A stretch of 64,000 bases of DNA, taken from positions 96,001 through 160,000 of the forward strand of contig JAZDNO010000006.1 in the NCBI GenBank assembly GCA_043799545.1, given 5' to 3'. Made by a program: the position numbers and the translations under genes. This DNA is from Methanobacteriota archaeon (lineage in GTDB: Archaea; Thermoplasmatota; Thermoplasmata; SG8-5; DAIRED01). Under the pieces are notes generated by a model that made no database searches, was not told the origin of the DNA, and worked only from the letters and a program-made list of their open reading frames with translations. Shown piece after piece: positions 24,689 through 35,633 of the stretch (within the stretch, counting starts at the first letter, position 1; the number at the start of each line of letters is the position of its first letter).

Positions 24689-25585
24689 GTGATCGTCATG
24701 GATGAGATGAGCATATACATAGACGGAAAGTACTACCCGAAAGCGCAGGCCAAGATATCGGTTTACGACCACGGCCTGCTTTACGGGGACGGGATTTTCG
24801 AGGGAATTCGAATATACGACGGTAATATATACCGATTGAATTCGCATCTTGAGCGGCTTTACGAGTCTGCCAAGACGATAATGCTGACAATCCCTATGAG
24901 CATCGATGAGCTGAGGGATGCGTGCGTCGCGACCGTGAAGAAGAACGGCCTCCGCGATGCGTACATACGCCTGATGGTCACAAGGGGAGTGGGGGATCTG
25001 GGCCTTGACCCGAGGAAGTGCCCCAGGGCGACCGTGATAATCATCGTGGACCGCATCAAGATGTTCCCTGCGGAGTATTACACCAAAGGTTTGGAGGTCG
25101 CCACCGTGCCGACGACCAGGAACATGTCCGACGCCCTCAACCCGAAGATCAAGTCGTTAAACTACCTCAACAACGTCATGGCGAAGATAGAGGCGAACAA
25201 CATGGGCGTGCCAGAGGGTCTATTGCTCAGCGCCCAGGGCTATGTGACCGAGGGGACGGGGGACAACATCTTCATAATCCGGGACAAGATACTCCAGACT
25301 CCGCCGACGTACGACGGCGCTCTGGCCGGCATAACCCGCAGCTCCATCGTCTACATGGCCAAAGACCTGGGCTACACATGCGAAAAGAAAACCCTGACCC
25401 GCCACGACCTCTATAACGCTGAGGAGTGCTTCTTGACCGGGACAGCCGCAGAGCTAATCCCGGTCGTCAAAATCGATGGCAGGGTCATAGGAACGGGAAA
25501 GCCCGGGCCGATATTCAAGAAGCTTCTCGCAGAGTTCAGGAAGCTGACGAAGGTGGATGGTTACAGGGTGTACAAGAAGAAATAA
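24689..25585 (+). CDS. ilvE: Branched-chain amino acid aminotransferase
   Basis: LLYGDGIFEGIR, KSLNYLNN (PLP Lys), EGTGDNIF, LAGITR, LTGTAAE. Confidence 0.95.
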   Translation: MIVMDEMSIYIDGKYYPKAQAKISVYDHGLLYGDGIFEGIRIYDGNIYRLNSHLERLYESAKTIMLTIPMSIDELRDACVATVKKNGLRDAYIRLMVTRGVGDLGLDPRKCPRATVIIIVDRIKMFPAEYYTKGLEVATVPTTRNMSDALNPKIKSLNYLNNVMAKIEANNMGVPEGLLLSAQGYVTEGTGDNIFIIRDKILQTPPTYDGALAGITRSSIVYMAKDLGYTCEKKTLTRHDLYNAEECFLTGTAAELIPVVKIDGRVIGTGKPGPIFKKLLAEFRKLTKVDGYRVYKKK

Positions 25586-25590
25586 TTAGG

Positions 25591-25672
25591 GCCACTGGAG
25601 GGATTTGAACCGACGACCAGTTGGATAGCAATGCTATATGTCCCCTATGGTGGTCTAAGTTCAAATCCCATC
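25591..25672. repeat. Hairpin unit downstream of tRNA-Thr made of sense and antisense copies of its T-arm/3' end
   Basis: 25591-25611 equals 25700-25720 (21 nt exact); GGGATTTGAAC (25600-25610) and GTTCAAATCCC (25659-25669) form an 11-bp inverted repeat; inner GACCA/TGGTC stem. Confidence 0.85.
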
Positions 25673-25698
25673 AAGCTAGGAGCGATATAAATAAATTA

Positions 25699-25772
25699 AG
25701 CCACTGGAGGGATTTGAACCCCCGACCTGCTGATTACAAATCAGCCGCTCCACCGAGCTAAGCTACAGTGGC
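25699..25772 (-). tRNA. tRNA-Thr(UGU), intronless, CCA not encoded
   Basis: GCCACTG-TA-GCTTAGCTCGGTGGAGC-G-GCTGA-TTTGTAA-TCAGC-AGGTC-GGGGGTTCAAATCCCTC-CAGTGGC cloverleaf. Confidence 0.97.
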
Positions 25773-25818
25773 GTTTTATTGCTTATGAATGGATTTGTAT
25801 TTCCGACGGACTCCCGAA

Positions 25819-25911
25819 GCTGAGCCGGAACAAATGCATTGTGGCTCAGCGAGGCACAGACCTTCACCAACCGGAAGGCTGGTCTAGTGCACCGAGCTAA
25901 GCTACAGTGGC
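25819..25911. repeat. Hairpin units upstream of tRNA-Thr made of sense and antisense copies of its 5' end/D-arm
   Basis: 25890-25911 equals 25751-25772 (22 nt exact); GTGGCTCAGC (25841-25850) is an imperfect inverted copy of GCTAAGCTAC (25896-25905); perfect 8-bp IR at 25819-25826/25843-25850. Confidence 0.85.
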
Positions 25912-25965
25912 ATTATACCAGAGCGAAATCATAGGAAACGTTTAAAGTTAATCATTGTTTCGCTG

Positions 25966-26955
25966 TTGCTGATGAAAAAATTCGAAAGATGCATTAGGAA
26001 AGACGAATTCGCCGCAGCCTGGTCCGAGCAAGAAACGGAGACCGAGCGCGCTTTCGTAATCATCCTGAGGACGTCCGGCTGCGCTTGGGCCGCCAGGGGC
26101 GGGTGCCTTATGTGCGGCTACTCGTCCGAATCGCTCCAAGGCGTGTGCCAGGAAGACATCGAGGCGCAGGTGGCGAAGGCGCTGGCGAAGTACTCCGGCG
26201 AGGCCGTTGTCAAGCTCTACACATCCGGGAGCTTCCTCGACGAGAAGGAAATCCCCGACCCAGCGAGGATATGGCAGACGTTGCTCGATGCTGGCGCGCG
26301 CAGGCTTCTGGTGGAATCCCGCCCGGAATTCGTCGAGCCGTCCTTATCCGACATCGAGCCGTTCAAGGGGAAACTCGAAGTTGCCATGGGACTGGAAACG
26401 GCCAACGACAGTGTGCGCGAACGCTGCGTGAGGAAGGGATTTACCTTTGCGGATTTTTCCGCGGCATCCGAATCGCTGAGGGGCGCTGGCTCGACCGTGC
26501 GCACCTACCTCCTTCTCAAGCCACTTTTCCTGGGGGAGGCCGACGCGATGGCGGACGCTCTCTCCTCGGTCGGCACGGCGTCCGCGCATTCTGACGTCAT
26601 TTCACTCAACCCTGTCAACGTCCAGAGGCGGACTCTCGTGGAGCGAATGTGGCGCCGGGCTGAATATAGGCCTCCGTGGCTGTGGTCTATTGCGGAGGTG
26701 CTCTCGAAGGCGGAAAAGGGGAAGGCGCGTTTGGTCTCATCTCCGTCGGGAGGCGGCACGCAGCGCGGCGCTCACAATTGCGGGAAATGCGACGCCGTCT
26801 TCCTGGATGCCGTTTCAAAATATTCCCTGACCCAGGATGCGGATGTTTTCCGCGGGCTCGGATGCGAGTGCTCGGAGCTATGGCGGGACATTCTCGAACT
26901 GGAAAGCCGGGCGATGACGACCACAGATTTGGAGCGCACTTCCTGGCGCGGCTAG
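25966..26955 (+). CDS. Archaeosine biosynthesis radical SAM protein RaSEA (TIGR01210-like)
   Basis: ILRTSGCAWAARGGCLMCGY extended Cys motif, KLYTSGSFLD, ESRPEF, YRPPWLWS, GAHNCGKC. Confidence 0.85.
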   Translation: MLMKKFERCIRKDEFAAAWSEQETETERAFVIILRTSGCAWAARGGCLMCGYSSESLQGVCQEDIEAQVAKALAKYSGEAVVKLYTSGSFLDEKEIPDPARIWQTLLDAGARRLLVESRPEFVEPSLSDIEPFKGKLEVAMGLETANDSVRERCVRKGFTFADFSAASESLRGAGSTVRTYLLLKPLFLGEADAMADALSSVGTASAHSDVISLNPVNVQRRTLVERMWRRAEYRPPWLWSIAEVLSKAEKGKARLVSSPSGGGTQRGAHNCGKCDAVFLDAVSKYSLTQDADVFRGLGCECSELWRDILELESRAMTTTDLERTSWRG

Positions 26956-26992
26956 CGAACCGGTTATATCCGGGCAGGGCATCACCGGCGGC

Positions 26993-27481
26993 ATGACGCT
27001 CCTTTCAGACGCGGAAATCAAGCGGTGGATGACCGATGGCTCGCTCCGCATCGCGCCGTTCGCCGAGAAGAACCTCACTCCCAACGGCTACGACCTCACC
27101 ATCGAGGAAGTGCTGATACCAGGCCAGGCCAAAGCGTTCGACGTGACTGTCCCACCGATGTCACGCTTCGTTGTGAGCACCAGGGAGCGGGTGGAGCTGA
27201 ACGGGCCATTCACTGCGCAGCTGTGGATAAGGACGACATGGGCTCGGCGCGGCGTGCTGGCATCTTTTGGCAGAATAGACGCCGGTTTTAAAGGGACACT
27301 CACCCTGGCGGCATTCAACGCGTCGGCCGAGCCGCTGCCGGTCAGGGCTGGGGAGACTTTCGCGCAATTAGTCTTTGAGCCTCTGGCCGGCGGCGTTGAA
27401 AAGACTTACGCCGAGCGCTCGGGGAATTACCAGGACCAGAAAGGAGTGACCCTGGCAAAAGACAAATCTCGGGTGGTTTGA
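26993..27481 (+). CDS. dcd: dCTP deaminase
   Basis: LSDAEI, TPNGYDL, RTTWARRG, IDAGFKGTLTL, FAQLVF. Confidence 0.85.
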   Translation: MTLLSDAEIKRWMTDGSLRIAPFAEKNLTPNGYDLTIEEVLIPGQAKAFDVTVPPMSRFVVSTRERVELNGPFTAQLWIRTTWARRGVLASFGRIDAGFKGTLTLAAFNASAEPLPVRAGETFAQLVFEPLAGGVEKTYAERSGNYQDQKGVTLAKDKSRVV

Positions 27482-27495
27482 CAAGCCACGTTATC

Positions 27496-28488
27496 TCAAT
27501 CTCTTTTTAAATCGTATGCAACCACCGAAGAGCCAGGCGAATATGGGTGGACGATGTTCCACGACCAGCATGTGGCTCCCCGGGCGAGAGCCTCAAGCTC
27601 CCTGGCGCGCCCCCCCTCCGCACCCTTGTCGACAACCTGATAGACGTGAAGCCATGCGCCTGGCGCCGAGGCCTTTAACGCTTCTGGCAGGAACTCGTGA
27701 GCGCTGTGCGGCAGGTTCATGATTATCCGGTCCGCAGGACCGAGCTTCGGGGCCAGTTCCCGGGCGTCCCCGTGGTGCGCGCTAACGGAGCCCGCCTTGT
27801 TCCTGGCGATGTTCGCGCGCAGGAATTCAATGGCGTGGGCGTTCGCGTCCACGCAGGTGACCGACGAGGGCTTGGCTTTCTTCGCGATGAGTATTGAGAA
27901 CGGGCCGACCCCGCAGAACATGTCCAGCACGCGCTCCCCCTTTGCCACGAGCTGGGCGATTCGCCACCGCTCGTTCGCGAGCCTGGGAGAGAAATAGACC
28001 TGGGCCAGGTCGAGCTCCAGCTCGATGCCGTACTCCCTGTGGACGGTGCGCGTGCTCTGCCTTCCGGCGACGACCTTCAGGGATCGGACGCGAAGCTCTC
28101 CCTCTACGCCCTGGTCAAGCGCTGCGGAGGCCAGGTTCCTGTTCGCCGCAAGCATGGCCTTTCCGATCTCAGTCGCGTGCGGTGCAAGCTCGTCAGGGAG
28201 TTTGAAGATGGCAACGTCCCCGACGATGTCGAACGAAGACGGCAAGAGCGCCTTCAACCCATCGGGAACTTCAGCCACATCCTTGTAGCTTTTGATACGG
28301 CTGGGAGCTGGTTCGAAATCGTCCTCGCCAACAGGGTAACCCATTGCGGGCCCATCGAGGACGGGCATGTAGACATGGGTCCCATCGGACTTTATGCTGA
28401 GGTCTCCTCTCAGTAGCCTTGCCTCTGAAAGCTTTTTACGGGCGGACTCGCCTTCCCCTCTGGGCACGATAACGCATCGGGCTCTCAC
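27496..28488 (-). CDS. trm5: tRNA m1G37 methyltransferase, Trm5/Met-10+ family
   Basis: SFDIVGDVA, YFSPRLANER, DMFCGVGPF, IIMNLPHSA. Start placed at GTG 28488 to avoid overlap with dph5. Confidence 0.85.
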   Translation of the reverse strand: MRARCVIVPRGEGESARKKLSEARLLRGDLSIKSDGTHVYMPVLDGPAMGYPVGEDDFEPAPSRIKSYKDVAEVPDGLKALLPSSFDIVGDVAIFKLPDELAPHATEIGKAMLAANRNLASAALDQGVEGELRVRSLKVVAGRQSTRTVHREYGIELELDLAQVYFSPRLANERWRIAQLVAKGERVLDMFCGVGPFSILIAKKAKPSSVTCVDANAHAIEFLRANIARNKAGSVSAHHGDARELAPKLGPADRIIMNLPHSAHEFLPEALKASAPGAWLHVYQVVDKGAEGGRARELEALARGATCWSWNIVHPYSPGSSVVAYDLKRD

Positions 28489-28498
28489 GGTGCAACGC

Positions 28499-29287
28499 AT
28501 GGGCGAATTGGTATTTGTCGGTTTAGGTCTCGGTCCGGGAGGCGTCAGCCAAGCAGGGCTGGAGGAATTGAAGGGCTGCGGCAAGGTCTTCGCAGAGACC
28601 TACACCGCGCCAGTCGAAAAAGGCATGCTTCCGGAGCTGGCAAAGCTCATAGGGAAGGACATCGCGCTTCTGGGGAGGAAGGATGTCGAGGACGGGAAGC
28701 TCATTCTGATGGAGGCGAGCCGGGGCAGGTGCAGCATCCTGGTCCCGGGCGACCCGATGGTGGCGACGACCCACGTAGACCTGAGGCTCAGGGCTGTGGA
28801 AAGGGGCATCGTGACCAAAATAATCCACGCGGCGAGCATAGGCACGGCCGCCGCTGGCCTTCTGGGGCTCCAGAGCTACAAGTTCGGCCGGACCACCACG
28901 CTGCCTTTCTGGAAACCAGGCTACGAACCGACCAGCCCTTACGACGTCGTCGAGGCCAATCGCAATGAAGGACTGCACACTCTGGTGCTTCTCGACATCG
29001 ACGCAGAAGGCGGCGCGGCCATGACTGCGACCCAAGGCATGGCGCAACTGATTGCATTGGAGGCAAAGCTCGGCCGTGGAGTATTCAAAGCCGACACTCT
29101 CGCATGCGTGGTGGCCCGTGCCGGCCACGACGACGTTCTCGTGAAAGCGGGTGAAATAACCGTTCTCGCAAGAGAGGATTTCGGGCGGCCACCGCACTGC
29201 ATCGTCATCCCGGGCAAGCTGCATTTCATGGAATCGGGGGCGCTGGTCGCGCTCGCGGGAGCGCCGAAAACGATATTGAAGGATTAA
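28499..29287 (+). CDS. dph5: Diphthine synthase
   Basis: MGELVFVGLGLG, ETYT, GDPMVATTHVDL, LQSYKFGRTTTL, LHTLVLLDI, PPHCIVIPG. Confidence 0.93.
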   Translation: MGELVFVGLGLGPGGVSQAGLEELKGCGKVFAETYTAPVEKGMLPELAKLIGKDIALLGRKDVEDGKLILMEASRGRCSILVPGDPMVATTHVDLRLRAVERGIVTKIIHAASIGTAAAGLLGLQSYKFGRTTTLPFWKPGYEPTSPYDVVEANRNEGLHTLVLLDIDAEGGAAMTATQGMAQLIALEAKLGRGVFKADTLACVVARAGHDDVLVKAGEITVLAREDFGRPPHCIVIPGKLHFMESGALVALAGAPKTILKD

Positions 29288-29934
29288 ATCCCCAGCGCCT
29301 GTTTCAACTCATCCATTCCGACGCCGTGCTTCGCATCCGTGAGAATAACCGGAGCCCTCGAATTGAGGTTTTTAGCATCTGACACAAGGACCTGCGGGTC
29401 CACTTCGACCGCGCCAGCCAGGTCAATCTTGTTTATCACGATGAGGTCGGCGATTGTGAAAATCAACGGGTGCTTCCTCACCATGTCGTCTCCTTCAGTC
29501 ACGGAGATTACAACGACGCGCTTGTCGGTGCCGAGGGGGAAATCCCCCGGGCATACGAGGTTGCCCACGTTCTCGATGAAGAGGATGTCCAGCTCTTCCA
29601 ACTTTAGGTGCTCCAGGGCGTGGTCGACCATGTGCGCGTCTAGGTGGCATTCTTTCCCGGTATTGACGTTCTCGGCTGTCGCACCCCTATTGACAAAACG
29701 CCTGTAATCGTCATCCCCCGCCACATCGCCAGCGATGCACCCCACCCTTTTCCCGTTTGCTTTCAACGCCTCTATCATCTTCTCGATGATGAGCGTCTTG
29801 CCAGAGCCTATTGAGCCGACGAAATCAAACGACTTGATTCCTTTGGATTTCAGGCGGACGTGGTTGTCGTCTGCGATGCGCAAATTCGCACCTAGTACGT
29901 TGGCCCCGAGATCCACGTCCACGACCTTGTGCAG
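29284..29934 (-). CDS. hypB: HypB Ni-insertion GTPase; probable CTG start
   Basis: GSIGSGKT, ECHLDAHMV, ENVGNLVCP, EGDDMVRKHP, NKID; RBS GGGGTGA 4 nt before CTG-CAC-AAG (HKVVDV, a HypB-type N-terminus). Confidence 0.9.
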   Translation of the reverse strand: MHKVVDVDLGANVLGANLRIADDNHVRLKSKGIKSFDFVGSIGSGKTLIIEKMIEALKANGKRVGCIAGDVAGDDDYRRFVNRGATAENVNTGKECHLDAHMVDHALEHLKLEELDILFIENVGNLVCPGDFPLGTDKRVVVISVTEGDDMVRKHPLIFTIADLIVINKIDLAGAVEVDPQVLVSDAKNLNSRAPVILTDAKHGVGMDELKQALGI

Positions 29935-29938
29935 GCGC

Positions 29939-30112
29939 TCACCCCTTTCGCTTGGGGATGCTGCAGATGGCATACTCGTCCCCGTCCAAAAACACATCCA
30001 GATCGGGATGCTTCTCCTGGATCTGCCTGATGTTCTCCATGACCTCCGAGATGGTCTTCGTGCCGTCCCGGCTGAGCTTCACATGCACCCTCTTTTCGGT
30101 CAGGCTTAACAC
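29939..30112 (-). CDS. Small hypothetical protein, ~57 aa, below the ORF-track cutoff
   Basis: Hand translation (V/M)LSLTEKRVHVKLSRDGTKTISEVMENIRQIQEKHPDLDVFLDGDEYAICSIPKRKG*; its stop lies inside the hypB RBS; TTTATATA upstream at about 30161-30168 on the minus strand. Confidence 0.7.
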   Translation of the reverse strand: MLSLTEKRVHVKLSRDGTKTISEVMENIRQIQEKHPDLDVFLDGDEYAICSIPKRKG

Positions 30113-30265
30113 CCCGCCAGACGCTTCGCGCGCCTAGATACCACCAATCCTTGCCGGGGTATATAAACCTAACCTCGGGCGGACATCGGTCACTCTAGCA
30201 TGAATTCGTCATTGCTTCAGGTCAATTTATTTATACCATCTCGCTCATCAGCATCGCGGCCAATC

Positions 30266-30272
30266 TTTTTAT
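30266..30272 (+). promoter_or_regulatory. Putative TATA box for the KaiC-like gene
   Basis: TTTTTAT about 27 nt upstream of GTG 30300. Confidence 0.4.
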
Positions 30273-30299
30273 CCATTGGCCGGCGCGAGGTGCACCTAG

Positions 30300-32714
30300 G
30301 TGGTTCCCAAAGCTGGCAAAGACGAAGAAGCGACCTGTCCGGTCTGCGGTGGGCCCATAGACGAGGCTGGCGCGAAATGCGCCCGGTGCGGCGCGGCCTA
30401 TGTCGCCCCTGGAGACAGAAAGGCGAAAAAGAAGGTCCAGATTGCCCACGGCAGCAAGCCCGAGAAAAAGGAGGCTGCACCCGAGAAACCTCCCCAGGCA
30501 GCGAACGATTCTAAGAATGCGGCCGCCAAGGAAAGCAACGCCGACCTGGCCAAATGGCTGAGCGGCGAGGAGGAGGAAAAGGGCCTGACGGACTGGCTTG
30601 GTGGCGGCAAGACTGAGGCGAAACAGCCGTCCAGGCCCAGCGCAAAGCCAGCTCCGGCACAAGATGCCAAGGACTCCAACGTCGACGCTCTCAAAGCCTG
30701 GCTCAGCGGTGAGGAGGACACGCTTACTTCGTGGCTTGGTGAAGACCCCACGGCGAAACCCAAGGCCGCCTCGGTCCCGTCAGTGGTCTCGGACGAGGTC
30801 AGCAAGGAGCTGGGGGAGCGGGAGAGCGCCCTCGCTGAGAAGGAGACCGCCTTGAAAAAGCGCGAGGAAGACCTCGATGCCATGAGGGGGGCGCTTCAGG
30901 AGCAGCTTTCAAAGGTCCAGACGGGCGAGTTCGATCCGATGGTCCTAATAGAAGAGACGGCCAGGCTCAACAGGGATCTCCAGGCGGAGGTGAGGAAGCG
31001 CAAGGAGCTGGACGACGAAATTGTCCAGGTCAAGAAGGGAAGCATCGCGGTCATCAAGTACGTCAAAGCGCAGCAGATGCAGCGCGGCGGGGACGCGGCC
31101 CGCTCCATCCACAAGCGTCTGGACGAGGTCACCGCGGAGAAGGAGAGGCTCACAGTCGAACTCAAGAAGACCATGGAAATAAACGAAAAGATGAAGGCGG
31201 ACATGGCCGAGGGGCTGAAAGCCCTGCCCGACGGCGACCGGGCCATCAAGGAGAAGGAGATGGCCCTGATGGAGCAGGAAAAGCAGCTGGAAGCATCGAA
31301 AGCGGAGCTGCATGAGAAGGAAAAGCAGATGCGCGAAGCGGTGATTTCCTCCGGCGGGGGGGTAGGGGCGGCTTCGGCTGAGTTGCAGCAGCGCTTGATG
31401 GCCGAGCTCGGGGAGAAAGAGAAGGAATGGCTCAAGAACGAGGGCGAGCTGAAGAAGCGCATACTCGACCTTGAAGCCAACATACAGGAGCTTAAGATTA
31501 ACCAGAAGCAGGTCCAGGAGGCGGCGGAGCTCAAGGGCAAGGGTGCGGAGGTCAACGCAGAGCTCGAGCGCAAGATACGCGAGCTTCAGATAAAAGAGAA
31601 GGCGATGCTCCTCAGGGAGGAGGAGATAAGGAGGCTGTCCCAGCAGCTGAAGGACAAGGACGAGGAGCTCAAGAAGGTCAAGGAGCCCTTGAAGTACAAG
31701 GAGGAGGAGCTGCTGAGGCGCGAAGAGGACCTGCTCCACCGCGAGAAGATATTGATGGAGGAGCGCAGGAAGTACGAGGAGGCGGTGAAAGACACCGGCA
31801 GCCTCCAGACGCACGACATGAAGATGAAGATTGAGGAGCTGAACCAGGAGATAAACCGCAAGGAGGAGCAGATACGCACCAAGGAGCAGTACCTCAACGC
31901 CAAGATGGAGGACCTTAAGCTGAGGGAGCAGGGGCTCATAGGCCAGGAAATCGAGGCGCGCGAGGAAGACCGCAAGCTGGAGCTGAAAATCGAGAAGGTC
32001 AAAACGGGCACTTCGAGACTGGACGACCTTCTGCTCGGAGGCATACCTTTCGGGACGAACGTCCTGGTCTACGGTCCGCCTTTCGCCGGAAAGGAGATTG
32101 CCATCAACGCCTTCATCGCAGACGGCCTGAAGAAGGGCGTTCCGGCAATCTGGGTCATCACCGACAAGCTCCCCTCCGAGATACGCGAGGAGATGATGTT
32201 CATAGTGTCAGGGTACGAGGAATACGAAAAGCTCGGCCTGGTCAAATACGTAGATGCGTATTCCAAGAGCATCGGCGAGGTCACGCCTGACCCCAATGTC
32301 ACTTACATCGAAGAGGCCACGGACCACGTGGGCATCTTGAAGGCAGTGGACGCGGTGGCGAAGGAGCTGCTGCAGAAGCACAAGTACTACCGGGTGGGGT
32401 TCAGGTCGATTTCCACCCTGATAGCGTACCTGGATTCGAACGCCGCATTCAAATTCCTACAGCCGTTCGTCGGCAGGCGCAAGCGCGAGCGCGCCGTATC
32501 CCTCTTCTCCATCGAGAAGGGAATGCACAGCGACCAGGACATCCAGATGATCGGAAGCCAGATGGACGGGGCCATAGAATTCAAGATCGAGCAGCTGAAG
32601 ACCTTCCTTTGCATCAAGGGAATCGGCGACGTGCAGTCGAAGGCGTGGATAGAATACACATACAGCAAGCAGGGCATGGCAGTTGGCTCATTCAGCTTGG
32701 ACCATATACGTTAA
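30300..32714 (+). CDS. Zinc ribbon + long coiled coil + C-terminal KaiC/RAD55-family ATPase
   Basis: CPVCG...CARCG; about 420 aa rich in E/K/L heptads; KTGTSRLDDLLLGGIP, GPPFAGKE, VKYVDAYS, QMDGAIEFK. Confidence 0.88.
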   Translation: MVPKAGKDEEATCPVCGGPIDEAGAKCARCGAAYVAPGDRKAKKKVQIAHGSKPEKKEAAPEKPPQAANDSKNAAAKESNADLAKWLSGEEEEKGLTDWLGGGKTEAKQPSRPSAKPAPAQDAKDSNVDALKAWLSGEEDTLTSWLGEDPTAKPKAASVPSVVSDEVSKELGERESALAEKETALKKREEDLDAMRGALQEQLSKVQTGEFDPMVLIEETARLNRDLQAEVRKRKELDDEIVQVKKGSIAVIKYVKAQQMQRGGDAARSIHKRLDEVTAEKERLTVELKKTMEINEKMKADMAEGLKALPDGDRAIKEKEMALMEQEKQLEASKAELHEKEKQMREAVISSGGGVGAASAELQQRLMAELGEKEKEWLKNEGELKKRILDLEANIQELKINQKQVQEAAELKGKGAEVNAELERKIRELQIKEKAMLLREEEIRRLSQQLKDKDEELKKVKEPLKYKEEELLRREEDLLHREKILMEERRKYEEAVKDTGSLQTHDMKMKIEELNQEINRKEEQIRTKEQYLNAKMEDLKLREQGLIGQEIEAREEDRKLELKIEKVKTGTSRLDDLLLGGIPFGTNVLVYGPPFAGKEIAINAFIADGLKKGVPAIWVITDKLPSEIREEMMFIVSGYEEYEKLGLVKYVDAYSKSIGEVTPDPNVTYIEEATDHVGILKAVDAVAKELLQKHKYYRVGFRSISTLIAYLDSNAAFKFLQPFVGRRKRERAVSLFSIEKGMHSDQDIQMIGSQMDGAIEFKIEQLKTFLCIKGIGDVQSKAWIEYTYSKQGMAVGSFSLDHIR

Positions 32715-32718
32715 GCCA

Positions 32719-32871
32719 TCATTTTTTCCGCTTCCAAAGGAATAACGGCAACGGAACGAATAGGAAGAAAAACAGCCAGCCAGTTAATATGAATACAGTT
32801 ATCGAGGCTGCCATGGTTAGGATTAGAATCCCCATAAGAAACCAAGGCGAGAAAACCCAGTCCGCCTTCAT
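32719..32871 (-). CDS. Small membrane protein, 50 aa
   Basis: MKADWVFSPWFLMGILILTMAASITVFILTGWLFFFLFVPLPLFLWKRKK; ATGA overlap with the upstream stop at 32868. Confidence 0.6.
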   Translation of the reverse strand: MKADWVFSPWFLMGILILTMAASITVFILTGWLFFFLFVPLPLFLWKRKK

Positions 32872-33290
32872 GCGACTTCGATTCCGGATGAGGGCTTGGG
32901 TCCCGGGCTCTTCCCGATGTTGACCTGCGGCATCGGAATCGGCGGGGGCATCTTCAGGTCCCTGGAGACCATGACCGCCTCTGGCACGCAGTTCATCATT
33001 ATCGCCTGGTGAACCTGCGTCGCCACGTCGTCCGGCATCTTGTGCTCGGTCTGCCACTGCTTGGCGACCGCGCTGGCATTGCCTTCGAAGACCATCTTGC
33101 CCTCGATTTTAATGAAGCCGATGCTCGAGTAGTTGGCTGTGAATCTGAACTCCACGTTGGCCTCCTTGTTATTGATTTCGGAGATGAGCGTTATACTGCT
33201 GTTGTGGTCTATCCTGATGTTGCCCATGGCCTCACCCAGCTTCGTGAAGCGCCGCGCGTCAATCGAGGTGAACTCGAAATTCGTTATCAT
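32868..33290 (-). CDS. Conserved-looking archaeal protein, possibly SecB-like fold
   Basis: Alternating beta pattern (NVEFRFTANYSSIGFIKIEGKMVFEG) followed by helix and PPPIPMPQV; family recognised only tentatively. Confidence 0.65.
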   Translation of the reverse strand: MITNFEFTSIDARRFTKLGEAMGNIRIDHNSSITLISEINNKEANVEFRFTANYSSIGFIKIEGKMVFEGNASAVAKQWQTEHKMPDDVATQVHQAIMMNCVPEAVMVSRDLKMPPPIPMPQVNIGKSPGPKPSSGIEVA

Positions 33291-33375
33291 GCACTATGCC
33301 AATGACCCGAGGTGGATTAATAACTTTCGCTTCTAATCGCTGCCGCCACAGCGCCATTATGTATGGTGCATCTCA

Positions 33376-33557
33376 AGGCCGTACTTGAACTGCCGACCTT
33401 CGACGGAAGGTGTGATTGGCGGTCAGCTGTGTTCAAGCCCTATGTTCGAGCATCGAATACGCTCCGATGGTGGCAAATAAATCCGGACTTGAACCGCAGA
33501 ATCGCTTCGTTTAGCAATCAAGTTCGATGATTCTGCAAGTTCAAGTCCCCTGCGGCA
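33376..33557. repeat. Two tandem hairpin units downstream of tRNA-Phe bounded by inverted copies of its T-loop
   Basis: ACTTGAAC 33383-33390 / GTTCAAG 33431-33437 and GGACTTGAAC 33485-33494 / GTTCAAGTCC 33539-33548; inner stems GCAGAATC/GATTCTGC and GCCGACC/GGTCAGC. Confidence 0.85.
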
Positions 33558-35633
33558 TGAATAGCTGAAAAAATAAAACCTAATGCCGCAGGCCGGACTT
33601 GAACCAGCGACAACTTGATCTTCAGTCAAGCACTCTCCCAGCTGAGTTACTGCGGCACCGTCTCCGGGAAGCCCGCCAGCGTTGCGCTCCTCTGTGGCGG
33701 AGGGGGTTGATTGGACTGCCCCTACATTAAGCTTGCCTTCCCCACCTCTGGTGACCTCGGTGATATTCTCAACAAAGCTCCAGTTCACGGCGTAGATTTC
33801 CGCCCACGTCCCGCGGGTTTCGTTCTCGAACGAGGCGGCCAATACGAACGGCTCCTCCCTCAGCATCGCGAGCGTCTCGTCCGAGACCGGGGGAAGGCTC
33901 ATGCCGGCCAGGGAGACCCCGCTGACGCGCATCACGTCGTCCACGAGCACGCAGCCCACGCGGGTCCCGTTCGTTCCGTTTAGTACGTCCATGCAGTCGC
34001 GCCATTGTGTGGCGTTCCAGATGGCGGCGCCTCCCTCGAACGTCGCCCGGAGTCCCATGGCCTCCAGCTGCGTTCCGAGCCTGTGGTCGGTTGCGACAGA
34101 ATATCCAGGGGTGGCGTTCTGGCCAAGCCAATCTAGCGCCGCCAGGTCTTCGTCGCTTATCCGTTCGTCGAAGCCAATCTCAGGCGCCAAACGGTAGCTT
34201 GCCAGAGCGCTCCCGACAAGCAATGCGACGACCAGGACGGGGACGACGGCGCGCGAACCGACCCTCCAACCCTTTTCATCGATCCAGACGCCCCTGCCCT
34301 CCCACTGTTGCCGTGTGTCCAAGGATGCTGGCCGCAGGTCCGAAATGAATGCCGCATCGCTTCCCCCGACCGTTCCTCCACTCTTGGGCAGGAAGGGGAT
34401 GAACCTTCTGGTGGTCTCCATGGAAAAGGCCCTCTCAATGCTTGGCGCAAGCAGGAAAGCCATCCCCATGGCCGCGAAGAGCGACAGTGGCTCCATCAGG
34501 TACTCGAGGTGCCTCTCCGGCAAAAGAATGTCGCTGCCGACTGCGAGCGCAACCGCCATAGAGAGTCCAACCGCCGCGAACCATCCTACGATTTCAGAAC
34601 CCCTTTCAAGCATGGCGGTCCTGCTCAACCCAACAGCGCCGAAGGCCAGGATGGCGAAGACAGGCACAGAATAGACCGCGAGCATGGGAGTGGCCCTCGA
34701 TGCTATGGCCGGGCTGTCGGCGATTACCAGCAATGCAATCGTGAAGGTAAGGGCTGAGAACGCGAGTATGAATTTCATTTTTTCATAGCCTCGCGACACG
34801 GGGTCGGAAAGCCAATCCAAGACCGACCTGAACCGTCTCCTGAGAACCAGCAAAGCCGCGGCGAACACCGCATATGCCAGAACGATTGCCGGCCAGGGGA
34901 GCCTGGTTCCTGTTTTCACGAAGGAGAGCACCTCGGTCGCGACGAGCCCCCAGTAAGCGAACGCGAGACATGCGGCGAACGCGATGTATGCTAGCTGGGC
35001 CTTCGAGGGGGCTCGGCGCTGAAGCGCAACCATAGCCGGAAGGGACGCCAGATACAGGTAGGTTGTGAAGTGGTGGGAGCCCACCAGCAGAGCCGTCGAA
35101 GCGATGAGGAGCGCCCAGTCCGCCCTGCCCATCGAGGGCTTGGTCAGCAGGAACATGCATGCCAGGAAGAAGAAATGGCCCATCGTCAAAGGAGCCGCGT
35201 GGCTCGTCTGGTAGACGTGGACGGAATTGACAGCCAAGAGAGCCATGGCGAGAAGCGCGGTTCGGCGCCCCATTCCCGCATTCCTGGCTATGAAGTACAC
35301 GAAGGCCACGGATAGCCCGCCGAACACAGGCGCGACCTTCGTCATCAGCCAGAACGCGTCCGAACCCGTGAGCAGGTGCGGTAATGCCGTAACCAAATAG
35401 AGCACCGGAAAATGCTCGTACGATTGCCCCCATCCGATATATGGCGGGAACAGCGCCCCGTTGTTTATGACCGAAGATGTGAGACCGTAATAAATTCCCA
35501 TATCGCTTCCCCATCCAGAATATATCCAGGCTGGAACTGAGCGAAGGGCGATTGCGAGGGCGCAGAGCCCGATGAAAGCGAGGGCGTGCGGATTTCGCAG
35601 ATGCCGCCCGAGAAGCGCCCCCGTTCGAGACAT
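33423..35633 (-). CDS. Multi-pass membrane protein, GT-C/PMT-like glycosyltransferase architecture; frame runs through tRNA-Phe
   Basis: SGWGSDMGIYY acidic loop after TM1, YEHFPVLY, >12 TM helices, LPERHLEY, soluble C-terminal domain. Start set at ATG 35633; true 3' end uncertain. Confidence 0.7.
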   Translation of the reverse strand: MSRTGALLGRHLRNPHALAFIGLCALAIALRSVPAWIYSGWGSDMGIYYGLTSSVINNGALFPPYIGWGQSYEHFPVLYLVTALPHLLTGSDAFWLMTKVAPVFGGLSVAFVYFIARNAGMGRRTALLAMALLAVNSVHVYQTSHAAPLTMGHFFFLACMFLLTKPSMGRADWALLIASTALLVGSHHFTTYLYLASLPAMVALQRRAPSKAQLAYIAFAACLAFAYWGLVATEVLSFVKTGTRLPWPAIVLAYAVFAAALLVLRRRFRSVLDWLSDPVSRGYEKMKFILAFSALTFTIALLVIADSPAIASRATPMLAVYSVPVFAILAFGAVGLSRTAMLERGSEIVGWFAAVGLSMAVALAVGSDILLPERHLEYLMEPLSLFAAMGMAFLLAPSIERAFSMETTRRFIPFLPKSGGTVGGSDAAFISDLRPASLDTRQQWEGRGVWIDEKGWRVGSRAVVPVLVVALLVGSALASYRLAPEIGFDERISDEDLAALDWLGQNATPGYSVATDHRLGTQLEAMGLRATFEGGAAIWNATQWRDCMDVLNGTNGTRVGCVLVDDVMRVSGVSLAGMSLPPVSDETLAMLREEPFVLAASFENETRGTWAEIYAVNWSFVENITEVTRGGEGKLNVGAVQSTPSATEERNAGGLPGDGAAVTQLGECLTEDQVVAGSSPACGIRFYFFSYSCRRGLELAESSNLIAKRSDSAVQVRIYLPPSERIRCSNIGLEHS
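33584..33656 (-). tRNA. tRNA-Phe(GAA), intronless, CCA not encoded
   Basis: GCCGCAG-TA-ACTCAGCTGGGAGAGT-G-CTTGA-CTGAAGA-TCAAG-TTGTC-GCTGGTTCAAGTCCGGC-CTGCGGC-A. Confidence 0.97.

Follow-up and report, generated by a model that had tools for sequence, protein, structure and literature searches.

What are the hairpin-forming units that flank two tRNA genes on contig JAZDNO010000006.1 of a Methanobacteriota archaeon, and why do they carry copies of the ends of those same genes? The units lie beside tRNA-Thr(UGU) and tRNA-Phe(GAA) in a 64,000-nucleotide stretch of the contig (positions 96,001 to 160,000; hereafter the window, numbered from its first letter), which belongs to a 2.06-Mb metagenome-assembled genome (MAG; G000) of an uncultured Thermoplasmata lineage, 94% complete and in 31 contigs. 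Comparison with a congeneric genome (G001) and with two further genomes that hold related units (G002 and G005) indicates that the units are probably gene-less mini mobile elements, which insert at the ends of tRNA and other stable-RNA genes and restore the end that they displace. The element class, of roughly 100 nt (about 95-140 bp) and observed in an uncultured Thermoplasmata order, is apparently undescribed.

Filled sites, empty sites and a genome-wide rule

A filled site far from any tRNA gene lies 2.6 kb past the end of the window (G000 C10:162557-162669), in an intergenic promoter region, and reads GGTTCAAG, 97 nt, GGTTCAAG. The inserted unit of this orphan site, 105 nt long, belongs to family B, the family of the window's own Thr and Phe units. 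Within its 97 nt, 15 nt copy the tRNA-Phe 3′ end at 2 mismatches; a loop of 23 nt, a mirror (the reverse complement of the copied segment) and a family B stem-loop make up the rest. The orthologous locus of G001 is empty: it has a single GGTTCAAG, and both flanks align.

The tRNA-Thr(CGU) gene provides a second case. In G001 the promoter stands directly before the tRNA and the upstream module is absent, whereas in G000 the same promoter is separated from the tRNA by three things in turn: 21 nt that copy the 5′ end, the module, and another promoter-like box. Judged from this alignment, the G000 module is an insertion bounded by 21-nt repeats, and the order of the promoters implies that the outer copy is the old gene end and that the working end is element-borne. 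Downstream of the same gene, G001 has a family A unit where G000 has two family B units. Similarly, tRNA-Phe has an extra family A unit beside the gene in G001, tRNA-Gln(CUG) differs by a clean extra module of 143 nt, and tRNA-Lys carries a 5′-end module only in G001. Of the 24 tRNA loci that are orthologous between G000 and G001, at least 10 have flanks that differ by 100 nt or more. Turnover may also reach a protein gene. A family B unit of G001 (C40:11074-11190, minus strand) lies 19 nt past the last codons of a rubredoxin gene, which there form a T-loop-like word; in G000 the orthologue (C31:74021-74176) differs at its C-terminus and lacks the unit. Insertion that rewrote the C-terminus of the protein is a possible, and only suggestive, reading of this site, whose downstream flank in G001 is not alignable with G000.

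The design recurs across the genome. tRNA genes were called with ARAGORN, and 37 credible tRNAs of G000 were counted; three ARAGORN calls (C7:38437-38529, C18:49248-49326 and C27:9766-9841) were left out as likely false positives, being of odd length, GC-rich, repeat-like and without tRNA-like features. Of these 37, 29 have a copy of part of themselves, 10 nt or longer, no more than 500 nt away, compared with 24% of random 74-mers, and inverted self-copies accompany 19 of them, compared with 7%. The enrichment next to tRNAs, which the initial annotation had suggested testing, is far above background. The gene for signal recognition particle (SRP) RNA shows the same design of mirror and stem-loop.

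The spacing within the units is also regular. In G000 the end of the copied segment varies in position between 14 nt within the tRNA and 5 nt past it, and the mirror usually starts 23-24 nt after that segment, even where the segment is trailer. The loop measures 23-25 nt in 21 of 30 first cassettes from four genomes, whichever part of gene or trailer forms the arm, and a spacing of 23-24 nt is seen by eye in two further families of the order. These loops are T-rich in their first half and not palindromic; accordingly, the 24-nt loop is not part of one long palindrome (symmetry 56, compared with 59.9 +/- 6.2 in shuffles). Nor does the loop behave as a promoter whose start is fixed at the cassette, as the distance from tRNA end to hairpin varies from about +33 to +47 while the loop stays constant (by eye).

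What is mirrored is genomic. The copied arm is sometimes only a CCA-like end plus T-tract or trailer, and mirrors include genomic trailer bases or T-tracts but never the CCA-tailed end of mature tRNA. Because the arm can be trailer or T-tract, the mirror is a copy of genomic DNA rather than of mature tRNA, and because the mirrored segment shifts between T-loop, acceptor and trailer, it addresses no constant nucleotide. Retro-copying from mature tRNA was rejected on the same trailer bases and on the lack of any RVT_1 (reverse transcriptase) match in the 94%-complete G000. For the decoy or antisense function raised in the initial annotation we find no support, since the mirror can be trailer or T-tract alone. 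Wherever a locus holds several direct copies, those farther from the gene are shorter (Arg 23/19/10, Pro 15/12, Cys 14/10 and Gly 14/11 nt), as is expected if new units enter beside it.

Two families of units were modelled. Family A (model R1) is a two-hairpin cassette with 20-23 copies in G000, 27 in G001, 8 in G002 and 17 in G005, and none in the other 37 genomes searched. In its helices 98% of cells are paired, and 13 of 17 pairs have changed on both sides. On the tRNA-sense strand its G-U pairs outnumber A-C mismatches by 3:2 in one genome and by 10:4 in four, which is suggestive only; strand assignment by folding energy was abandoned, as the difference between sense and antisense was inconsistent. 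Family B (model R2) has 8 matches in G000, 3 in G001 and 2 in G002, and the strong ones are all next to a tRNA-Thr or tRNA-Phe gene, apart from those at two orphan sites. Both folding and the covariance model support its inner stem. The initial annotation had suggested building a covariance model from the units, and such a model retrieves more tRNA-adjacent copies, at tRNA-Thr(CGU), at tRNA-Thr(GGU) and in two more genomes. In other families of the order the layout recurs around unrelated cores; the element families are lineage specific.

The view of these units as a candidate new tRNA-associated family also holds up against databases and literature. In Rfam searches at permissive thresholds over the window region and 27 more loci, only tRNA and SRP RNA reach thresholds, and the matches that overlap units are weak and at chance level. 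Publications on tRNA-linked repeats, on RAYT, palindrome-associated transposable elements (PATEs) and IS200, and on archaeal tRNA integration yielded no description of such elements.

Two further repeats of G000 deserve mention. A tandem array on the minus strand (C12:98050-98400) consists of three family-A-like units, each repeating one 16-nt end; this end belongs to a short transcript-like region after a TATA-like box that has no Rfam match, and the region upstream of the array may, from its sequence, be an unannotated small RNA gene. The repeat at C28:16276-16371 represents another family, about 95 nt long, of which G000 has 9 copies and G001 at least 12. By eye, look-alikes lie upstream of tRNA-Ala(GGC) and downstream of tRNA-Met, and this family is probably another small mobile element.

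The tRNA-Thr and tRNA-Phe loci of the window

All four hairpin units that had been described beside the two genes are present. One architecture had been proposed for all of them, and it extends to three: the unit downstream of tRNA-Thr and the units Phe-2 and Phe-1 each combine a mirror of the T-arm or 3′ end, an inner stem-loop and a direct copy of the 3′ end, and folding supports a long hairpin in each (z = -3.2, -4.6 and -1.9, respectively). The fourth, upstream of tRNA-Thr (25786-25915), consists of a 5′-end copy and two separate hairpins when set against three orthologues and paralogues, and by this comparison is a different module from the three downstream-type units.

All features of both loci lie on the minus strand. 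The intact tRNA-Thr(UGU) gene (25699-25772; ARAGORN, and Rfam tRNA at 67.5 bits) is followed directly at its 3′ side by an AT-rich 29-nt spacer with a T-tract (25670-25698), the position of which is conserved in G001. Next come an 11-nt mirror (25659-25669), the exact reverse complement of tRNA-Thr positions 53-63 in T-loop and T-stem, and an inner 47-nt stem-loop with the family B core (25612-25658), conserved in G001 and in the tRNA-Thr(CGU) paralogue. The unit ends with an exact 21-nt direct copy of the tRNA-Thr 3′ end (25591-25611), followed by its own T-tract (25575-25590).

On the 5′ side, an AT-rich promoter-like spacer (25773-25810) stands directly before the gene; its A/T box, about 22-31 nt before the tRNA, is conserved in three copies, and G002 has a clear TATA-like box. 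Hairpin 2 (25811-25854), supported by compensatory changes in four copies, is a palindrome that resembles the D-arm region of tRNA and has only three copies in G000, at Thr(UGU), Thr(CGU) and Asn. Hairpin 1 (25855-25889) has a stem kept by compensatory changes in G001, in the paralogue on C6 and in G002, while its sequence is not conserved. Outermost lies an exact 22-nt direct copy of the tRNA-Thr 5′ end, covering acceptor and D-arm start (25890-25911). We read the copies at 25591-25611 and 25890-25911 as displaced older ends of tRNA-Thr, the 3′ one with its terminator. The spacers that now flank the gene (25670-25698 and 25773-25810) would then be element-borne and supply terminator and promoter, respectively.

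The intact tRNA-Phe(GAA) gene (33583-33657; ARAGORN, and Rfam tRNA at 65.4 bits) is separated by a T-rich 24-nt loop (33559-33582), in line with the loop-length rule, from a 20-nt mirror (33539-33558) of the last 22 nt of the gene plus one trailer base. This mirror consists of two exact 10-nt blocks with a 2-nt bulge. The inner 43-nt stem-loop of Phe-2 (33496-33538), which carries the family B core and is matched by model R2, has an orthologous copy in G001. It is followed at 33474-33495 by a 13-nt direct copy of the tRNA-Phe T-arm (33483-33495) and a T-tract; of the old 3′ end, the acceptor part is lost. Phe-1 (33376-33445; R2 match of 50 bits) is a degenerate family B unit in which the copy of the tRNA-Phe 3′ end has decayed; its fold is weak, it is absent at the G001 locus, and we read it as an older layer than Phe-2.

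Hairpin 1 and Phe-1 hold the two instances of a motif, GACCTTC..CGGAAGG..GGTC (25859-25884 and 33395-33424), that the initial annotation took for a shared core able to act as a switch. Two ordered 7-mers shared with the Thr unit occur in 0.8% of random 81-mers of G000, or about 5% when the six possible pairs of units are allowed for. The motif is missing from the orthologue in the same genus, from that in G002 and from the tRNA-Thr(CGU) paralogue, where the stem is altered by compensatory substitutions, and no other relative compared has it. The stem CCTTC...GAAGG occurs 53 times in G000 and GACCTTCACC about 30 times. Since it is borderline over chance and absent from orthologues, we dropped the motif as a family signature and treat it as a coincidence within a variable stem. 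Likewise, the TGGTCTA common to both Thr units is a single 7-mer of the kind expected by chance, 60% of random pairs sharing one.

The open reading frames (ORFs) around the units encode housekeeping proteins, among them an aminotransferase, Trm5/TYW2 and a KaiC-like ATPase. As had been noted from the start, no recombinase or other candidate enzyme is found among the genes of the 64-kb window; candidates lie elsewhere in the genome.

Candidate enzymes and related systems

G000 has three matches to PF01797, the Y1 HUH transposase family. The IS200/IS605-family TnpA of G000 (C25, L243:316-768) scores 109 bits with NF033573, matches the TnpA of ISHp608 at E = 5e-16 and is homologous to that of ISDra2. 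Most genomes of the order have one or two copies of TnpA, and other families of the class mostly lack it or have many. By analogy with the systems discussed below, this conserved IS200-type transposase is a candidate enzyme for the units. No TnpB match reaches the cut-off in G000. Synteny of the transposase gene was of no help, as its flanks are not conserved between families. G000 also has four tyrosine recombinase genes, three of them adjoining tRNA genes: C10:219117-219668 at tRNA-Glu(UUC), C12:73938-74411 at tRNA-Arg(UCU) and C25:2690-3220 at tRNA-Val(GAC). These three probably belong to ordinary integrated elements.

One arrangement around TnpA is an observation in its own right. At G000 C25:29915-30581 (L243:316-982) an intact tRNA follows the TnpA gene within about 200 nt, preceded by a hairpin, a truncated tRNA copy and a promoter, and similar arrangements are found at L244:306-390, L230, L104, L105 and L108. 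The linked tRNA has a long variable arm and a G discriminator, which are serine-like identity features, but a Leu or Phe anticodon (GAG in G000 and G001, GAA in G004 and G007, CAG in G011). Another tRNA of this type, with anticodon GAA, is encoded on C24. Were they charged with serine, these tRNAs would misread Leu or Phe codons.

The closest working analogy for the units is IS608, in which target and cleavage sites are read by pairing with a guide near the foot of a subterminal hairpin, at a fixed distance (PMC5934647), and which has been retargeted by engineered pairing of 12-17 nt (PMC5934647). Like IS608/ISDra2 and PATEs, the units are small hairpin-based elements. Their geometry would suit a guide of this kind: a target segment is followed by a 23-24-nt linker, its complement and then a hairpin, and the inner hairpin of family B has the complement of GGTTCAAG on its 5′ side and GGTTCAAG itself on its 3′ side. 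The pairing of IS608 spans 4 nt, however, whereas that of the units spans 10-22 nt and differs from locus to locus. Unlike IS200/IS605 elements, the units carry a functional gene end with promoter or terminator, and an 8-21-nt direct repeat bounds the insert. The imperfect-palindrome hairpins of families A and B are conserved among copies, as in PATEs, but no TnpA-encoding copy with the same ends was found.

Archaeal integrases offer a different parallel. When they insert into a tRNA gene, the incoming copy of the tRNA end restores the gene and the old end becomes a direct repeat (PMC3293823, PMC8371274, PMC5704250). SSV- and pNOB8-type integration and cis-mobilisable accretion thus resemble the units in that the gene is restored and that tandem accretion takes place at one gene. 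In contrast to SSV- and pNOB8-type elements, the units are gene-less, with direct repeats around about 100 nt that hold no ORF; they carry mirrors and conserved hairpins, and their targets include both ends, 5′ and 3′, of many different tRNAs, and SRP RNA too. A single sequence-specific integrase is not expected to recognise so many different targets. The scattering of tRNA fragments by an integrating element in Caldiarchaeum (PMC3293823) is among the nearest published cases.

Bacterial repeats share individual features. The 178-bp repeats of E. coli tyrT, known as rtT, are tRNA-linked repeats of the 3′ end downstream of the gene. Copies of the 3′ end also lie downstream of stable-RNA genes in the E. 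coli rrA, rrB and rrF read-through small RNAs, with dual terminators (PMC8144298). These E. coli repeats are, like part of each downstream unit, short direct copies of a stable-RNA 3′ end, but they lack mirrors, family-wide hairpin cores, genome-wide spread and presence/absence evidence for insertion. Integron attC sites, and repetitive extragenic palindromes (REP) and REPINs with their RAYT transposases, are gene-less, hairpin-forming extragenic repeats as well, thought to be handled as folded single strands (PMC8266576). REPs are constant in sequence and high in copy number, unlike the units with their 8-27 copies per family and locus-specific arms. The Y1 protein of G000 reaches 19 bits against a RAYT cut-off of 80, and neither R/L boxes of attC nor an integron context was seen at the units.

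Proposed mechanism, rival explanations and meaning

We propose that an element exchanges at a short core shared with its target, which in family B would be the T-loop word. The element would bring its own copy of the gene end, together with a terminator on the 3′ side or a promoter on the 5′ side, such that the gene stays intact and its original end is left outside as the outer direct repeat. Newer insertions next to the gene would push older, decaying units outward, as in Phe-2 followed by Phe-1. The mirror beside the conserved stem-loop would let the element fold as a rod-like hairpin, and this folded form, probably of single-stranded DNA (ssDNA), may be the substrate of recombination, with the mirror helping to choose the target by base pairing in the manner of the IS608 guide sequence. 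Of the ideas in the initial annotation, a folded ssDNA substrate agrees with the insertion evidence better than RNA regulation does, although the folded form itself is inferred; the idea that hairpins are newly templated from the resident tRNA gives way to elements that carry a gene-end copy and leave the old end as a flanking repeat. The fullest version of the mechanism, base-pair-programmed ssDNA transposition in which mirrors of 10-22 nt act as guides, each matched to the end of one stable-RNA gene, the conserved IS200-type Y1 transposase of the order acts in trans and the element becomes hard to lose by supplying the working end, promoter or terminator of the gene, is a possibility, though on balance a doubtful one.

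Several points weigh against insertion by mobile elements. Only one filled/empty pair, at a non-tRNA site, has both flanks clean; the other cases sit at repeat-rich tRNA loci, and G001 is a fragmented MAG, 84% complete. Neither excised forms nor polymorphism among reads were seen. At tRNA-Leu and tRNA-Gly the family A units lack an outer direct copy, which a simple exchange model can accommodate only by loss of the old end or by a mode of insertion without duplication. No enzyme is linked to the units: the flanks of TnpA genes (C25, C12; L102-L108) carry other hairpins and not the module cores, and genomes outside the order with direct 3′-end copies showed no such TnpA. The 23-24-nt spacing lacks a mechanistic explanation, and the 10:4 G-U excess of family A hints at an additional constraint at the RNA level.

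That constraint would be natural if the units were functional RNA modules, such as minihelix mimics, processing signals for RNase P or RNase Z, back-up terminators or 3′-end protectors, with arms kept by selection. The many compensatory changes in the hairpins, the conserved loop and bulge bases of family A and the G-U excess over A-C (10:4 on the sense strand) are what such modules would show; so is the sense orientation of all copies after stable-RNA genes, SRP RNA included, and the exactness of mirror and direct copies between G000 and G001 at a locus that is about 80% identical overall. Yet two genomes of a single genus differ in module content at no fewer than 10 of their 24 orthologous loci, and between families within an order one core sequence gives way to another. 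Units are also found at non-RNA sites, and a T-tract lies between tRNA and unit. A mirror that may be trailer or T-tract only, and so addresses no constant tRNA nucleotide, is equally hard to place. Guide RNAs of the C/D or H/ACA type were rejected, as no boxes were seen by eye in the alignments, Rfam gave no match of the snoRNA type or any other, and the mirrored segment shifts. We regard RNA function as an unlikely account of the units; it can coexist with mobility and does not replace it.

The direct duplication of tRNA ends is also the classic signature of integrases (PMC3293823, PMC8371274), and with four tyrosine recombinase genes in G000, three of them beside tRNA genes, the units might be ordinary scars, that is, attL/attR remnants of large integrase-encoded viruses or plasmids whose bodies were later almost wholly deleted. 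Such deletion would have to leave a uniform size of about 100 nt without coding remnants, and the orphan insertion is just 105 nt; integration yields neither mirrors nor the 23-24-nt rule, and covarying hairpin cores are shared by some 20-30 loci per genome, with SRP RNA affected too. We consider scars highly improbable. Enzyme-free by-products, in which template switching at microhomologies and gene conversion generate palindromic partial duplications near highly transcribed genes, are only slightly easier to credit and still quite improbable. The orphan is indeed bounded by an 8-nt microhomology, as for a templated insertion, tandem arrays exist, and conversion, to which direct and inverted repeats that lie close together are prone, would keep arms identical. 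What by-products leave unexplained are conserved stem-loops typical of each family, whose bulges and loops are fixed, a constant spacing of 23-24 nt in four families of genomes, the strict orientation, the uniform unit size and the restriction to stable-RNA ends.

If insertion by mini mobile elements is correct, most tRNA genes and the SRP RNA gene of an archaeal order have had their ends rebuilt by tiny selfish elements. These elements would supply the promoter, terminator and terminal nucleotides in use, a new route to being hard to lose, and they would give rise to fragments of tRNA genes, to nested tRNA ends and perhaps to split or permuted genes. For annotation, the units mimic tRNA fragments, att sites and structured small RNAs. 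Base-pair-programmed transposition, if true, would be the natural counterpart of the engineered long-guide IS608.

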